Positions 30,984 to 37,916 of a stretch of 64,000 nt of DNA are shown in pieces. Numbering within the stretch: the first letter of the stretch is position 1; each line of letters starts with the position of its first letter. The notes below the pieces were generated by a model, which saw only the letters and a list, made by a program, of their open reading frames with translations, was not told where the DNA came from and did not search any database. Location of the stretch: sequence record NC_048203.1. The stretch is one strand, 5' to 3'. This stretch comes from Escherichia phage vB_Eco_mar003J3. The translations under genes were made by a program, and so were the position numbers.

Positions 30984-33900
30984 TTAAGAATTACCAAGTG
31001 ATTTCAGGGTGGTTCCATTCTCATTAAGAGCCTGTTCTACGGCATCCCTGAAAGCAGCACTGTTGCTCGAAGCAAAGTCTCGGAAGCTAGCCGCATCCAT
31101 CGTACTGATGTTCAGCACAATAGGTCTACCCGATGTACCCTTTGAAGATCCTTTGAGTTCATCAGTAGGAGTAGCCTTCATCGGAACCATAGGAGTGATT
31201 ACTTCGGTACCATGTTCACCCATCTGGTAACTAACTCCAGGATACATATTACCACCTTCTGCACGGGGTACGAAAGAGTTAGCATTACCAATCCCTTGAT
31301 CTCCTCGAATATAAGAAAGCTCACCTGCGTTAGCCGACATAGAAACGTCTACGTTCTTCTGGCGCTCTCCAAGAGTTAAGTAACCAGCTGTCTCAGCACC
31401 AGAGTCCCCAATAGAAGACATACCAGATGCAGAGGATGCTTGAGCAAGAGCCATAGCACCTGCTAAACCAGCCGCAACCATCAGAGGAATAGAGAATGGA
31501 TACGGAACAGCTGTTGCTGCCTGCATCACCGCTACTGCCGTCTGGATAATGATTTGCTTCTTAGCCGCATCTTGCTGGATCTTGAGCTTTTCAGCCTCTA
31601 ACTTCTTGATCTTAGCTTTAGATTGCTCAGATTTACCATCACGTTTCTGTTCTGCTGCAATAGCTGCATCAATAGCACTTACCTGTTGACCAACACTATA
31701 CTGAATCATTGAAGATACAGTTTGCATACCAGCCGCTACTAGAGAAGTGGTATCCAGAGATCCTTGTGAAAACTGGATCATAGCATTAGTTAGGTTACCC
31801 ATGCTTTGTGCTACAGCAGTTGCTTCGGAGTTCAGTTCAGACAGCTTAGAAATAGCCTGGTCATAGGATGCCATTCTATTCTGCATATCCATATTTGCTT
31901 TATCATCTCCTTCCAGTCCAGTTGTTGGAGTGTAAACACCACCAACAGAAGAAGTGACTTGCTGCTGCATCTGAGCATCACGTTGCATCTTAAGCTGTGC
32001 TAGAGCTGCCGAAGTTTCTTGGATTTTACGCTTATACTCTTCCTGAGCTTGTGCATTTCCTTTTGTAATTTCCAGTAAACTTTGGTACAGAGCTTGCTGT
32101 TCGGTTAGTCTCTGAGATTCCCCCGTAACGTTTCTGCTAGTCTGTGAAATATTAAGAGCTCTTTCACGTCCAGAAGCCATTTCCCTTTGCTGATCCTGAC
32201 GGAATTTCCAGATTTCACGTTCAATTTGTGCCTGAGCTCGTCTTGATTGTTCAGCTTCCTTATGCTTATCAACCTGTTTGGAGTACCATTCATACTTTTC
32301 TTTCTCGATAGTCAGTTCAAGGTTCAACTGAGCTAAACGATACTGAGTATCTGTCATAGTACGGTTATTCAGGAGAGCTATTTCACGATCAACACCAAGA
32401 ATCTTATCAGTATAGTCCTTAACCTTCTTCTGAGCTTCCATACCCTGGTTAGTGATCTTGATACGTTCTAACTGAATCTTAGCTATCTCACCTTCGATTG
32501 CTTTGTTACCCTTGTTAGTTTCTAGGACACGCTTAAGAGCTGCTTCCTGTTCTTCTAACTGTTGGATTTCCAGACGTCTACCAGCTTCCTGTGCTTTCTC
32601 TTTGTCCTTAGTCTGGTTGTATACTTCTGCAATTTTCTGCTGAACTTCTAACTGATTCTTAGTCTCATTACCAGTTAATTTTACGTAACCAGCAAGAGCT
32701 TGTGAAGCAGTCTTCATCTCACTAAGAGTATTATACCCTAAGTTCAGGCTCTTAACATACTCATCAGCATTTTTACCAGTACCAGCAGATAAAGACTCAA
32801 TAGTCTTAATCGTATCTGATAGGGATGCACTAGTTTTAGCCGCAGTGTTAGTGTTCTGAGCGATGTTCTGGATATCGTTAGCTAAATCACTAGCAGTTTT
32901 CTTAGCCTGGTCATATGCTTTCTGCTGTTCTGTCAATCCTTTCAGAGTTGCAGAGTTAAAGTCATAAACCGCATCCGGGTCATTTGCATCTTTCTGTAGG
33001 TTAATTTGCTTCTGGAATTCTGTATTAGATTTGGCTGCTGCAGCACCAGCAGCTTGGTATGCCGATTTCCATGCATTAAGATTGCCAGTTGAATCCTCTA
33101 CTTCCTTATCAAGACGCTCTACCTGGAGAGCTAATGCAGCAGTATCTGCAATGAATTTCTGGTTTTCTTCAGAAGATCCTATGCGAACTCCTCCTACTTC
33201 AAAACCTCCTGCAGCTAATCCTACCGGTGCACCTTGAGCAACTAAACGAATAGCCCCTGCTGTAGATGCATCTGCTTGCTGCATACGCTTATCTAGATCA
33301 GCTTTTAACTTATTACGCTTTTCTAGAGATTCTTTGTACATATCAAGAGCTTTATTATATCCTTCCTCAGAAGCGGAAAGACTTAAAGCTACAGCACCAA
33401 CGTTAGTTGGGTCAATCTGACGGTTAGTTTCTTCCTGTGCTCTAGCAGCAGAGGCCGAGATAGATGCTTGAGAAGTATAGAACACTGCGTTGATAGAATC
33501 AATTACTGGCCCTAAATACTTAGCAGCAGCCTGTTGAACCTTTCTCAGGGCAGCATCAGCATTAGCAGCAAACTGTTCCCAAGAGGTTGCACGAAGTACA
33601 TCATCAAGATAGCCGAAACGTTTAGTAGATTCAGCGATTACTGCGTTAGCATATGCTTGTTGCTTCTGGAAAGTAGAGAGACTATTAACGTTATATGTAA
33701 TACCTGTGTTAGCAGCATTTAACTGTTTAACGTAGTCAGCGTAAGCATCGTTAAGACGAATAGTAACACCAAGTTCGTCCAGAAGTTCGATTTCTTGTTT
33801 AGATACACCCTTGATTACACGGTTAAGTGCATCAGTCATATCAACACCAAGAACAGCAGCAGCACGACGAGCTACTAGACCAAATTTATTAAGTTGTTCA

Positions 33901-34691
33901 GCATCAAATCCATATGCAGAGGCAGAGGATGCCTGTCTCATTGCTTCTTCAAAGGAGATTGCATAACCAGCAGCCTCTTGTAGAGATCTAGCTAGAGTTT
34001 GTACAGGAGTACCTGTTTGAGTACCAACAATAGTACCAAACTTCTCAAGACGGTTTAACTGGTCACCCATCTTAAGTTGTTCGAATGCAGATTGTAGAAC
34101 GAACACGTTAGACGCAATAGCAGCATACATAAGAGGTAGAGAACCACCAACTTTAGCCATTGCTGCGAAGTCACGAGTAGCACCTCGTGCAGAACCAGAG
34201 GTATTACCTAGAGCACGACTAGCACGACCTGCGGATGTGGTAGTATCATTGAAGCCTCTAGTAGTACCCGACAAAGCACGGTTTGTATCGTATAATCTAT
34301 CTTGAACTTTTTCAGTTGCAGCAGCTACATCGTTACCCATTGCCTTAACAGATTTACCAACATGTGTAAATCCAGACTCTAGCTTATCAGATACCTCAAT
34401 CATAGCAATAGCAAGGTCATCTAACTTAGCACCAATACTATCCATAGATTTGGTGATGCCCATCATACCTCTGCTAGCCTGCATTTTTGTTAGACTTTTG
34501 GCTGCCCTATCTGCTGCCCTCTCAATGGAATAAAGAGTTTTGGGCATTTTTCCTAGCTGCTCATTAGTCAGTTCGGAAGCAGCAGCAGCGTTTTCTAACG
34601 CATCAGATACGTTTTCAATAGACTTTGCAGTACGGGTTGCCCCTTTCTGCTTTACATCTATAAGTAATTCTCGTATTAGCTTATCAGTCAT
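30984..34691 (-). CDS. tape measure protein pb2-like
   Basis: 1235 aa, long coiled-coil, C-terminal Gly/Ala-rich hydrophobic segment; canonical position. Confidence 0.9.
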   Translation of the reverse strand: MTDKLIRELLIDVKQKGATRTAKSIENVSDALENAAAASELTNEQLGKMPKTLYSIERAADRAAKSLTKMQASRGMMGITKSMDSIGAKLDDLAIAMIEVSDKLESGFTHVGKSVKAMGNDVAAATEKVQDRLYDTNRALSGTTRGFNDTTTSAGRASRALGNTSGSARGATRDFAAMAKVGGSLPLMYAAIASNVFVLQSAFEQLKMGDQLNRLEKFGTIVGTQTGTPVQTLARSLQEAAGYAISFEEAMRQASSASAYGFDAEQLNKFGLVARRAAAVLGVDMTDALNRVIKGVSKQEIELLDELGVTIRLNDAYADYVKQLNAANTGITYNVNSLSTFQKQQAYANAVIAESTKRFGYLDDVLRATSWEQFAANADAALRKVQQAAAKYLGPVIDSINAVFYTSQASISASAARAQEETNRQIDPTNVGAVALSLSASEEGYNKALDMYKESLEKRNKLKADLDKRMQQADASTAGAIRLVAQGAPVGLAAGGFEVGGVRIGSSEENQKFIADTAALALQVERLDKEVEDSTGNLNAWKSAYQAAGAAAAKSNTEFQKQINLQKDANDPDAVYDFNSATLKGLTEQQKAYDQAKKTASDLANDIQNIAQNTNTAAKTSASLSDTIKTIESLSAGTGKNADEYVKSLNLGYNTLSEMKTASQALAGYVKLTGNETKNQLEVQQKIAEVYNQTKDKEKAQEAGRRLEIQQLEEQEAALKRVLETNKGNKAIEGEIAKIQLERIKITNQGMEAQKKVKDYTDKILGVDREIALLNNRTMTDTQYRLAQLNLELTIEKEKYEWYSKQVDKHKEAEQSRRAQAQIEREIWKFRQDQQREMASGRERALNISQTSRNVTGESQRLTEQQALYQSLLEITKGNAQAQEEYKRKIQETSAALAQLKMQRDAQMQQQVTSSVGGVYTPTTGLEGDDKANMDMQNRMASYDQAISKLSELNSEATAVAQSMGNLTNAMIQFSQGSLDTTSLVAAGMQTVSSMIQYSVGQQVSAIDAAIAAEQKRDGKSEQSKAKIKKLEAEKLKIQQDAAKKQIIIQTAVAVMQAATAVPYPFSIPLMVAAGLAGAMALAQASSASGMSSIGDSGAETAGYLTLGERQKNVDVSMSANAGELSYIRGDQGIGNANSFVPRAEGGNMYPGVSYQMGEHGTEVITPMVPMKATPTDELKGSSKGTSGRPIVLNISTMDAASFRDFASSNSAAFRDAVEQALNENGTTLKSLGNS

Positions 34692-34702
34692 TTATTTTTC
34701 CC

Positions 34703-34736
34703 AATAAAAAAGGCTCTGGGCAAATCACCCAGAGCC
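34703..34736 (-). terminator. intrinsic terminator upstream of tape measure gene
   Basis: GGCTCTGGG-loop-CCCAGAGCC hairpin followed on - strand by TTTTTTATTGGGAAAAATAAATG, the last ATG being the tape measure start. Confidence 0.6.
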
Positions 34737-34774: not shown

Positions 34775-35140
34775 CTAAGCTCGAGATCTAGCATGTGGTT
34801 TAATGTTCGGAGTACGACCATTAGGTTTACTATGCTTCTCGGCTCTCTTACGAGCTGCATCTACAGCTTTCGAATCAAATATATTGATAATGTGTAGAAC
34901 AAACTCTTTCTCTATAGGATCAGTAATCCCATAGATATCAAATAAAACACCTAATGCACTTTTGTCTTTCCCTATAAATATAGGAAAGTCACCGGGTATG
35001 AAACAATCAATAAGACTATTATAAATATTCATACTAGTAGATACAATAGGTGGAAAATCTTCGAGCTCAACAGGCATTGCCTTAGGATCAGGTTCAATAC
35101 CTAGAGACTCACAAAGCATTAAATATTGTTGTTTTGTCAT
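34775..35140 (-). CDS. tail assembly chaperone, downstream (+1 frame) segment
   Basis: 121-aa ORF directly upstream of the tape measure gene; frame is open upstream to 35227 and overlaps the end of ORF 35202..35606; no good SD before its ATG. Confidence 0.55.
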   Translation of the reverse strand: MTKQQYLMLCESLGIEPDPKAMPVELEDFPPIVSTSMNIYNSLIDCFIPGDFPIFIGKDKSALGVLFDIYGITDPIEKEFVLHIINIFDSKAVDAARKRAEKHSKPNGRTPNIKPHARSRA

Positions 35141-35201
35141 TTTAGATGCTGAGGATTTAATGCATTTATCTGCAAAATCGGCAACAGCATCTAGTAACTG
35201 C

Positions 35202-35606
35202 TTACGCTTTTGAGCTACGAAAAGTGTCTAAGTGGAACACTGTCTGGTTGATCCAAGAATCAAACGCAGCAGAGTTCTGCATAAGCATGATAGCATTATC
35301 GCGGCTAAATGGAACTTCAGTAGTAGGATCAGCTTCAGTTTCGATAAGCATCAGCTTCTCAACATCTCCAATCGTCAAGCCAGTCCAGCCAGCAATTGCA
35401 GTATCAACGAAAGCTTCAATAAACTTATCATCGTCCTGAACCTGAATCATAGTACCGTTAACCCACTCGTCACGCTTAGCGGAAGAGATAACACGTTTAG
35501 ATGCAGCACGAGACATGTAGTTCAGTTGTAGCTTGAAGTTAGGCATACCTGGATAAGCCAGCTCAATAGTACGAGTTTCAAGGGTAATATCTTTTAAATT
35601 GATCAT
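35202..35606 (-). CDS. tail assembly chaperone
   Basis: 134-aa ORF in the canonical position upstream of the tape measure gene. Confidence 0.55.
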   Translation of the reverse strand: MINLKDITLETRTIELAYPGMPNFKLQLNYMSRAASKRVISSAKRDEWVNGTMIQVQDDDKFIEAFVDTAIAGWTGLTIGDVEKLMLIETEADPTTEVPFSRDNAIMLMQNSAAFDSWINQTVFHLDTFRSSKA

Positions 35607-36502
35607 TTCTTTATTTCTCCAAAGAAGTCGATTCTTACCGGATCAGAGTCTGCAGTAGGGATTACATCCCATTCAACTCTATATATATCCGAGAATTGTA
35701 GGCGTTTTGTTATACGTGTTGAAGGAAAATCTATCGAAATATGTTCATTTCGGATGGTTAATGGTATGTCAGTTTCGGGTTCAATATTATAAAACATATC
35801 ACCAGCAAATCGCTTGGTGTAGTAAAATGCAATTGTTGCCGAAGCATTCATTTCATTAACATAAGCTCTCTTATTATTATATATTTTGTTTATGTCAAAT
35901 ACGCTTTTATCTTCCCTCCAAGAACATTGTTGCTGGAATGACATAGAAGCGGATAAAAGAGCTGGTAAAACGTTACTATTGGTAGATACTCTAGGAGGAC
36001 TATATGATATGACTTCACCCTGAACAATAGAACCAGCAGGGGTAGAAGTGGATACCTCAGAGAACTTACCAGATTCAATTCCTACGTTTAGAATAGGAAC
36101 GCTTTTATCTAGAGAAAAGTCTACAGTAGATACATAGCAATTCTCAAAGTACACACAGTTATTATCTTTATTAACTATGTATATATTAAACATTGTTGGC
36201 TCAATATTTGTACTATAAAGTGGTAGTAAGAATGTGTTACCCTCTCGGTCAAAGCCCATCCATTCAAAGAAGTTAGCTTCAGTAAGGGTATTACTAAAAT
36301 TTATAGCCAGCGATATTGAAGATGGAGTTTGTGCATTAATAATAGAGTCAGCATAGTTGGTTCTACGATGTATAGTCCTACGAAGAGTTTTAAATTCCTC
36401 ATAGGACGTATTGATATCGTAATTTGACAGGGCATCAAAATGATAAGCCCTGCCATCGTACTCAACTATAACTTTTGACTCCCTCATTAGAGAGTAGTAC
36501 AT
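35603..36502 (-). CDS. minor tail protein (p140-like)
   Basis: 299 aa between tail tube and chaperone genes; 4-bp overlap. Confidence 0.5.
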   Translation of the reverse strand: MYYSLMRESKVIVEYDGRAYHFDALSNYDINTSYEEFKTLRRTIHRRTNYADSIINAQTPSSISLAINFSNTLTEANFFEWMGFDREGNTFLLPLYSTNIEPTMFNIYIVNKDNNCVYFENCYVSTVDFSLDKSVPILNVGIESGKFSEVSTSTPAGSIVQGEVISYSPPRVSTNSNVLPALLSASMSFQQQCSWREDKSVFDINKIYNNKRAYVNEMNASATIAFYYTKRFAGDMFYNIEPETDIPLTIRNEHISIDFPSTRITKRLQFSDIYRVEWDVIPTADSDPVRIDFFGEIKK

Positions 36503-36506
36503 TTAA

Positions 36507-37916
36507 TTAGCCACCAGAAGCAGTAACTGTAATGCTCTTAGTACCTTCTACACCAGAACCATCTTTAGCTACAGCTTTCACAGTAACTGCACCGGTCTTA
36601 GAAGCATCAGCGGTTAGTAACCCAGAAGTTGCATCAATAGTGGCAGCAGTACCAGAGGAAATAGACCAAGTTACTTCCTTATTAGTAGCTTCAGCAGGTA
36701 AAACATCTACAGTCATCTGAAGAGTTGCACTATTCTCGACGGAAGTTGCATCACCCGCAGATTTAACAGTAATACCTGTTACTTTTACTGGAGCTGCTTT
36801 ACCACCGTCACCAGTTGCAATCAGATTTGCAATAGTAGCTTTGGTGTACTTATTAGAGAAACCAAGATAACCTTCATCACCAGTATCCAGATCAGTAGGA
36901 ATTGCTTTGAACTCTACAGAAGTACCAAGTACATCGTCAGTCTCAATAGTTGGGATGTTTACGTGGGCTTGCTTAGCAACCAGAACAGCAGCAGGGCGCT
37001 CATCATCATATTCACCACCAAGTACTAGAGCGATTTCGAAACGGTTAACTACTTTCAGGGTCTTAATTAGATCTTTGTACAGATCCATAGAACCTAGAGC
37101 TTTATCGTTAAGATAAGCAGTTAGAGAACCAGTTAGTTCGAATGCACCAGTAAATGAACCGATTGGGATGTTAACACGGGACATAACGTTCGGAGTCAGG
37201 TAGGTGATGTTGTTATTGATTGTAAAGCTACCACCAGTGATCGGAATGTCATATGCCTTACCAGTATCCATATCCTTAATTTTGAGGATAGTCAGTTTGT
37301 TCTTGGTATAAGAACCCTGGATAGTCATGTAAGTTTCATCATCAATACCTACAGTATCAGGATCAAATGGAGCAGCATCCAGAGGGATCAGCTGGTTACC
37401 ATTACCTGACCAAGTTACACGACCGATATCTTCGATATCAACGTTTACTTCAGCCTGGTTGATCTGGCAGGAATCGATGTAGCTCCATGCTTTATCAGTA
37501 AGGATGTAAATATGTAGCATTGCCAGTTCGTGGTATGCGTTATCCTTAAAGTTAACCATGAAGTTAGTTTCGTTAGTGTGTGCACCTGTATCACCATCTA
37601 GGTTGATAGGCTTACCACTAGAAAGAGCATGCCACAGCATGTAGTCCGGAACGATCTGCTTACTCGTAGTCTTGTCTAAGTAAGGCAGGATGTAAGTAGA
37701 GAAACTCCACTCAGCTGCGTTCAGGGAGTCGTTGAAACGTTTTGAACCACGAGTTGGACGCGGACCAGCTTCGTTAACAGTAATATCGGTTGAGTTACTG
37801 TCCTGACCCCAAGAAATATCATCTTGAACTAGAATCTCTTGCGTGTTGGTCTTATCGTGACCAGTCTTAACCGTAGACACGAAGATTCGAGTATTACGTA
37901 ATAGTTGTAAAGACAT
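36507..37916 (-). CDS. major tail tube protein pb6-like with C-terminal Ig-like domain
   Basis: 469 aa; C-terminal Big_2-like KVTGITVKSAGDATSVENSATLQMTVDVLP...; strong RBS AGGAGA. Confidence 0.85.
   Translation of the reverse strand: MSLQLLRNTRIFVSTVKTGHDKTNTQEILVQDDISWGQDSNSTDITVNEAGPRPTRGSKRFNDSLNAAEWSFSTYILPYLDKTTSKQIVPDYMLWHALSSGKPINLDGDTGAHTNETNFMVNFKDNAYHELAMLHIYILTDKAWSYIDSCQINQAEVNVDIEDIGRVTWSGNGNQLIPLDAAPFDPDTVGIDDETYMTIQGSYTKNKLTILKIKDMDTGKAYDIPITGGSFTINNNITYLTPNVMSRVNIPIGSFTGAFELTGSLTAYLNDKALGSMDLYKDLIKTLKVVNRFEIALVLGGEYDDERPAAVLVAKQAHVNIPTIETDDVLGTSVEFKAIPTDLDTGDEGYLGFSNKYTKATIANLIATGDGGKAAPVKVTGITVKSAGDATSVENSATLQMTVDVLPAEATNKEVTWSISSGTAATIDATSGLLTADASKTGAVTVKAVAKDGSGVEGTKSITVTASGG

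Follow-up and report, generated by a model that had tools for sequence, protein, structure and literature searches.

How is the second gene of a tail assembly chaperone pair translated when it lies in a different reading frame from the first and has no recognizable ribosome binding signal of its own? This question is raised by two open reading frames (ORF1 and ORF2) of Escherichia phage vB_Eco_mar003J3 (sequence record NC_048203.1), of which a stretch of 64,000 nucleotides, hereafter the window, was analysed. The window corresponds to an Epseptimavirus, i.e., a T5-like phage of the Demerecviridae, with all tail genes on the minus strand, and its 1-kb chaperone region displays 97-99% identity to Epseptimavirus genomes and ~85% to T5. 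The genes are ordered as pb6-like tail tube gene, p140-like gene, ORF1, ORF2 and tape measure gene, and the two ORFs thus sit between the tail tube gene and the tape measure gene.

Long-tailed phages reportedly share a conserved frameshift in their tail assembly chaperone genes, a finding attributed to Xu, Hendrix and Duda in 2004, and the classic shift of this kind is by one base backwards (-1). In phage lambda, where gpG is the short chaperone and gpGT the frameshift product, the ratio is ~30:1 (reviewed in PMC5009743). For the window, a first-pass annotation had proposed a chaperone pair arranged for a +1 (or -2) frameshift, with tRNA-Lys slipping on AAA_G next to the ORF1 stop codon. In this work, comparative analyses of related loci indicate that a +1 frameshift is the likely answer, and point to another site, the conserved motif UUU_CGU. 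The features on which the argument turns are the following:

35202 to 35606, minus strand: ORF1, a gpG-like tail assembly chaperone of 134 amino acids, T5.143 homologue, the zero-frame product of non-shifting ribosomes
35205 to 35227, minus strand: overlap where the open +1 frame coincides with the last 23 nt of ORF1 sense codons, bounded upstream by the TAG at 35230..35228
35217 to 35225, minus strand: proposed +1 shift site ACU_UUU_CGU, with UUU (P site) at 35222..35220 and CGU (zero-frame A site) at 35219..35217
34775 to 35218, minus strand: +1-frame coding part, a gpT-like C-terminal domain of 147 codons plus stop that includes the annotated ORF2 (phrog_3914, phrog_313)
35141 to 35201, minus strand: linker of the predicted fusion (…KQLLDAVADFADKCIKSSASK), in the +1 frame, annotated as intergenic in most relatives and carrying a coding signature
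34775 to 35140, minus strand: ORF2, 121 amino acids, T5.142 homologue, with its ATG at 35140

Results

Arrangement and identity of the two reading frames

The 3' end of ORF1 reads ...CAC UUA GAC ACU UUU CGU AGC UCA AAA GCG UAA, and the ORF2 frame, which is +1 relative to ORF1, is open from 35227, directly after the +1-frame TAG at 35230..35228; the statements of the first-pass annotation on the sequence all hold. Both ORFs were called tail assembly chaperones by PHROGs, with ORF1 matching positions 12-141 and ORF2 positions 170-255 of phrog_313 (258 positions), and the +1-frame reading matched phrog_3914 (E=4e-57). The predicted 276-amino-acid fusion gives one continuous phrog_313 match, its residues 1-259 aligning with profile positions 12-255 of 258. 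ORF1 was modelled with AlphaFold on 10 homologues, with a predicted local distance difference test (pLDDT) score of 84.5, and the protein has a gpG-like chaperone fold. The PHROGs calls, the gene order and the ORF1 fold agree with the earlier assignment of the two ORFs as a chaperone pair. Pfam and NCBIfam scans returned no match for either ORF, nor did any PDB sequence match significantly in a profile search; as a query in the homologue search, the artificial fusion gave no match, and ORF1 alone gave homologues. The ORF1 homologues P0016-P0025 carry the precomputed Pfam family PF27119.1, which the local Pfam copy does not include.

Regarding start signals, no GGAG, GAGG or AGGA occurs in the 20 nt before ATG 35140 (AAATCCTCAGCATCTAAA), i.e., ORF2 is without a Shine-Dalgarno sequence; in contrast, ORF1 has GGAG upstream of its ATG. 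The ATG at 35140 is kept within the T5/Eps7 subfamily, and the Met is replaced by I, V or F in other lineages and genera. The 29-codon open stretch is not significant alone; when relatives are compared, the ORF1/ORF2 arrangement is judged to be far beyond chance.

Frame relation across related phages

The comparison comprised 82 related loci, of which 80 were scorable and 2 lacked the C-terminal part. A first set included the window and ten relatives from distinct Demerecviridae lineages (T5, phiR2-01, Enterobacter KKP_3711, Klebsiella KpGranit, Pantoea AAS21, Proteus VTCCBPA139 and four Vibrio phages), and the UUU_CGN hypothesis was formed on those 11 sequences; the test set consisted of 72 further IMG/VR loci, retrieved with the fusion alignment and scored automatically. 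ORF2 of the ten relatives was always +1 to ORF1, with its frame always open back across the ORF1 stop. Among all scorable loci the relation was +1 in 66/80 and -1 in 14/80, and the two ORFs were in frame in none. Likewise, in a tblastn search (908 records, spread sample), all 59 full-length matches listed came as two pieces whose span is 1 mod 3, and of the 165 representative clusters of the T domain the best 150 included no in-frame G+T protein. One protein of the representative library, P0031 (1455 aa), is repeat-protein-like, with eight separate stretches resembling T-domain residues 89-130.

The fusion alignment of 11 lineages has no gap at the junction, and the +1 reading is conserved right after the Phe codon (F-V/E-x-x-x-R-K-x-L-L…). 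From this Phe onward the +1 reading is gap-free, whereas in the zero frame ORF1 runs on for anywhere between 0 and 15 codons past CGN. Purifying selection acts on both ORFs. Throughout the comparison with the chaperone genes of T5 and relatives, the overlap is conserved and no independent ORF2 start is, in line with the fusion envisaged at first.

A conserved UUU_CGH motif within the overlap

Of the +1 loci, 66/66 have an in-frame TTT CG(T/A/C) near the ORF1 end, and in each of them the +1 frame runs open through the motif. For the window and the ten relatives, an in-frame UUU CGN preceded by A(A/C)N was the only overlap feature in common, and in the ten-relative set it is followed by 0-9 poorly conserved zero-frame codons before the stop. 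In a 100-nt alignment of 15 lineages, TTTCG was the only invariant 5-mer. Clustering at <70% identity gave 14 clusters, and all 14 use TTT and CGH, while elsewhere in the same genes Phe is TTT in 62% and Arg is CGH in 45% of cases; taking clusters as independent, the chance of TTT in all 14 is 0.62^14 = 1e-3 and that of CGH is 0.45^14 = 1e-5. UUU_CGH thus displays a family-wide nucleotide conservation beyond amino-acid need, and in the window UUU_CGU (35222..35217) is in frame and is followed by 147 open codons in the +1 frame.

The overlap is short in Vibrio phage 70E37-4: its ORF1 stop directly follows CGU and the usable overlap is AAC AAC UUU CGU only, so that UUU_C is the sole re-pairing site there (tRNA-Phe, UUU to UUC).

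Codon context was counted over all window ORFs of 80 amino acids or more. Phe codons before C were 30 TTT vs 92 TTC, and before T 40 vs 89; conversely, they were 148 vs 96 before A and 154 vs 90 before G. This avoidance of TTT before pyrimidines is consistent with selection against shift-prone UUU_Y. In-frame TTT-CGH was observed 5 times in these ORFs (11.5 expected), and TTC-CGH 24 times; the use of the motif at the proposed shift site therefore runs counter to the codon-context preference of the window. Only one of the 5 TTT_CGH sites, that at 35222, opens a long +1 ORF (147 codons), with the others opening 5-36 codons.

A +1-frame stop (TAG or TAA, from NTA + RAN codons) stands exactly two codons upstream of UUU in most lineages (minus strand 35228..35230 in the window; L001-L005, L009, L038, L042, L067 and L072 of the compared loci). 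As read from these sequences, such a stop confines productive +1 entry to the shift site, and it may simply reflect Leu-Asp/Glu codons.

The linker evolves as coding sequence

The linker was assessed in 19 distinct T5/Eps7-type sequences over the 61 nt from the ORF1 stop to ATG 35140. Variable sites fell on +1-frame codon positions 3/1/2 in the proportion 18/6/1 (P=9e-5), and synonymous family switches were found for Ser (AGC<->TCY) and Leu (CTN<->TTA), a pattern by which this stretch evidently evolves as +1-frame coding sequence. No ATG, GTG or TTG occurs in the +1 frame between 35227 and 35140. Being coding and without an in-frame start, the linker would be translated only by ribosomes coming from ORF1.

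Distant relatives with a -1 arrangement

The 14 relatives with the -1 arrangement are metagenomic homologues of 30-40% identity, each followed by a pb2-like tape measure gene if its contig is long enough. Classical X_XXY_YYZ heptamers lie inside their overlaps, in the correct phase and at the homologous Gly/Asn-Phe codons: G_GGA_AAC (ten loci), A_AAT_TTC, A_AAT_TTT, A_AAA_AAA and A_AAA_AAC. The -1 reading runs on into matching …KMTKxxYxEMCE… sequence, which argues that the fusion is the conserved product and that lineages differ only in their route to the second frame. At one -1 locus, L065 (IMG/VR 3300017780_002463, locus ~2385-2395), CAA AAT TTT CGG combines an A_AAT_TTT heptamer and a UUU_CGN-like sequence on the same codons; this locus is a plausible intermediate for a -1/+1 recoding switch. 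In the window, no canonical -1 heptamer leads into ORF2, and a -1 shift on CA_AAA_G was rejected as the -1 frame closes after 11 nt.

Discussion

Proposed mechanism

The frame relation and the motif across loci make a non-canonical (+1) frameshift that yields a fusion chaperone the best explanation, as the first-pass annotation had anticipated in general terms; we consider it likely that this is a programmed +1 frameshift at the conserved UUU_CGU, joining ORF1 and ORF2 as a G–T-like fusion chaperone. Most ribosomes would finish ORF1 at its stop, producing the 134-aa gpG-like chaperone, and a minority would pause with peptidyl-tRNA-Phe (anticodon GAA) on UUU 35222..35220. The tRNA-Phe would then slip one base forward, from UUU to UUC, with a G·U wobble being replaced by a G:C pair; C35219 would be skipped, and decoding would resume in the +1 frame at GUA 35218..35216. 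The predicted product is a 276-aa fusion of ORF1 residues 1-129 and 147 further residues (...HLDTF-VAQKRKQLLDAV...). For the UUU_C slip the junction peptide would be …TVFHLDTFVAQK, reading ...LDTF-VAQKRKQLL... in place of the ...SSK-RKQLL... junction that was first put forward.

The roles of the two parts would follow those known for lambda gpGT: the tape measure protein, presumed to be the client of the chaperones, would be bound by the N-terminal part, with the C-terminal part recruiting the tail tube protein. The slip efficiency would probably be a few per cent, and a low efficiency would suffice for a G:GT-type ratio. The slip itself, its efficiency and the two domain roles are what we infer from the locus.

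Points that weigh against frameshifting, and rival explanations

Several observations weigh against this explanation, for which the evidence is computational only. RNAalifold predicted 0 pairs across 15 lineages, i.e., no family-wide RNA structure downstream of the site, and no Shine-Dalgarno-like stimulator was found upstream of it (GUGUUCCACUUAGACACU; window and ten relatives), so the frameshift efficiency may be low. The hexamer TTTCGH is common, with 105 occurrences in the window, as chance predicts, and what makes it specific is its frame and context. Nor is the A-site codon a 'hungry', slow or rare one: CGT accounts for 388/842 Arg codons of the window, more than any other, and the Vibrio-phage variant CGA is the only plausibly slow A-site codon. 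The Phe-Arg dipeptide could be kept partly for protein reasons, and some independent ORF2 initiation at the conserved ATG 35140 is possible in the T5/Eps7 subfamily. Furthermore, T5 is said, in a passage of PMC6256483 that cites Zivanovic 2014, to have no predicted frameshift signal, and T5.142 produced on its own from a plasmid folds and actively triggers the Schlafen defence system (PMC13056530).

The last two points, together with the conservation of ATG 35140 within the T5/Eps7 subfamily and the two separate coding sequences (CDS) given in almost all GenBank records, speak for an ORF2 that is an ordinary gene, read without recoding from ATG 35140 (or ATG 35119) by poor or unconventional ribosome binding, the chaperones being separate polypeptides. 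We regard this as unlikely. ORF2 has no Shine-Dalgarno sequence and its Met is not conserved outside the subfamily, and the 61 nt before the ATG evolve as +1-frame coding sequence without a start codon. For two separate genes the relative frame would be free to vary, yet none of the 80 loci has the two in frame, and the frame relation follows the slippery motif without exception, with canonical heptamers in the -1 relatives. A third-frame ORF (ATG 35190 to TGA 35137, overlapping ATG 35140) was considered as a coupling device and rejected, since phiR2-01 does not have that ATG.

Alternatively, the fusion might be made at the A-run by the ORF1 stop, by +1 on AAA_G, as in the first-pass annotation, or by -2 on UCA_AAA. 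The tRNA-Lys is a known slippery tRNA, and CA_AAA is present in several enterobacterial-phage lineages. In addition, the record of Salmonella phage Shivani (NC_028754.1, YP_009194776.1), the only one found to join the two T5-like chaperone ORFs, has a joined CDS whose junction (…SSK-KRKELL…) corresponds by exact look-up to the -2 version at the A-run; the site of this -2 shift is unconserved in the family, and the genome announcement is silent on the join. Nevertheless, the A-run is lacking or stands in the wrong register in phiR2-01 (CCA AAG UCG), KKP_3711 (ACA AAA UAA), KpGranit, the Proteus and Pantoea phages, all Vibrio lineages (CGA GAC UAA, or CGU UAA in 70E37-4, where the stop directly follows CGU) and the metagenomic clusters, and in the window it is accounted for by the +1-frame Gln-Lys codons CAA AAG (Gln-Lys/Asn across lineages). 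For the -2 version, moreover, the tRNA would re-pair poorly (AAA to CAA), and a run of four A's is short for a slip of this size. Both slip sites were rejected as not conserved, and a fusion made there appears very improbable; the conserved UUU_CGH lies 12 nt upstream of the position chosen at first. Of the two directions named at first, +1 is supported by the 66/66 motif loci and -2 at UCA_AAA is not.

An origin of the +1 offset at the nucleic-acid level (transcriptional slippage, sequencing error or pseudogene) has nothing specific in its favour, with short runs only (T4 at 35223..35220, A4 at 35211..35208), and can practically be set aside, since hundreds of genomes, sequenced independently, show the same offset, the homopolymers fall short of what polymerase slippage requires (with T3 only in phiR2-01 and in the Vibrio phages) and both ORFs are under purifying selection.

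Comparison with known recoding systems

The proposed +1 frameshift shares with lambda gpG/gpGT the position of the pair just upstream of the tape measure gene, a short chaperone with a C-terminally extended fusion, a shift site few codons before the first-ORF stop, a second ORF without its own start and the chaperone fold; the distant homologues with X_XXY_YYZ heptamers relate it further to the long-tailed phage class. Unlike in lambda, the T5-like shift would be +1, with one tRNA slipping in the P site on UUU_C, not two in tandem, and the T5-like pair has no sequence similarity to lambda G/T. In E. coli, prfB (release factor RF2) uses a +1 shift at CUU_UGA with an upstream Shine-Dalgarno-like stimulator. 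The T5-like site resembles it in the +1 P-site slip and the enterobacterial host, and differs from it in having CGU, not a stop codon, in the A site of the window and no Shine-Dalgarno-like element upstream.

The closest core sequences are those of influenza A PA-X (UCC_UUU_CGU) and plant amalgaviruses (UUU_CGN), which are established +1 sites (PMC3498833, PMC5052127). The UUU_CGN core, the phase and the re-pairing proposed for tRNA-Phe, from UUU to UUC, are identical; in both cases the motif is a conserved feature of an entire virus family and seems to need no RNA structure. The T5-like phage differs in its bacterial host and ribosomes, and CGU, rare in the eukaryotic hosts of the PA-X/amalgavirus type, is the window's commonest Arg codon; the T5-like E-site codon is not UCC, except in lineage L038. 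For bacteria, the review PMC5009743 describes UUU_Ynn as +1-prone without a stop codon, e.g., in the Yersinia YopN-TyeA fusion. This case also combines a bacterial +1 shift at UUU plus pyrimidine, no A-site stop and a functional fusion of two adjacent genes (predicted in the T5-like case); it differs in the gene family, in a next codon that is not CGN and in lacking a family-wide phage signal. According to a tool paper of 2024, forward shifts have so far yielded no general motif (PMC10885494).

No described T5 frameshift was found in the searchable literature, although an unnoticed prior description is possible, with Zivanovic et al. 2014 known only via PMC6256483. In a 2026 study on bacterial Schlafen defence, T5.142 is handled as a chaperone in its own right, with no mention of frameshifting (PMC13056530).

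Extending the proposal to the family, we lean somewhat towards a scenario in which the Demerecviridae use a family-wide +1 frameshift on a minimal UUU_CGH, homologues have switched between -1 and +1 at shared Asn/Thr-Phe codons, and native T5.142 is then a G–T fusion made in an amount governed by frameshift efficiency. If true, T5-like phages would no longer be apparent exceptions to the conserved tail-chaperone frameshift, and the annotation of roughly 900 genomes, with two genes and an 'intergenic' gap, would need correction. It would also provide a tractable E. coli system for stimulator-poor +1 frameshifting on UUU_CGN, so far studied in eukaryotic viruses, and a natural example of one gene family whose recoding site has changed between -1 and +1. 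Were T5.142 made mainly as a fusion, the abundance, timing and form sensed by the Schlafen nuclease would differ from what has been assumed (PMC13056530).

Local RNA structure and neighbouring genes

The remaining features of the locus are a hairpin in the linker and the flanking elements:

35143 to 35193, minus strand: local RNA hairpin AGAUGCUG…CAGCAUCU in the linker, fold z = -2.84
36507 to 37916, minus strand: tail tube gene (pb6-like)
35603 to 36502, minus strand: baseplate tube protein gene, homologue of T5 p140 / T5.144 (Pfam PF23779, E=3e-141; phrog_3889)
34712 to 34736, minus strand: strong terminator-like hairpin with a T-run, separating the chaperone pair from the tape measure gene
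30984 to 34691, minus strand: tape measure protein gene, pb2-like, 1235 amino acids, in synteny with T5.140

The linker hairpin (35193..35143) starts ~27 nt from the shift site and ends just before ATG 35140. Three of its pairs display compensatory changes among 12 relatives, with a weak consensus energy, and it was found only in the T5/Eps7 subfamily, being absent from other genera. This hairpin could tune frameshifting or block the internal AUG. No phage tRNAs that might modulate the shift were found in the window.

Downstream of the pair, terminators are annotated in T5 and Spivey at the position matching the window hairpin 34712..34736. At this position T5 has an inserted HNH endonuclease gene (T5.141), which the window does not have. 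Upstream, the p140 stop and the ORF1 start overlap as ATGA (35603..35606, minus strand), an arrangement that suggests translational coupling of p140 and the chaperone.
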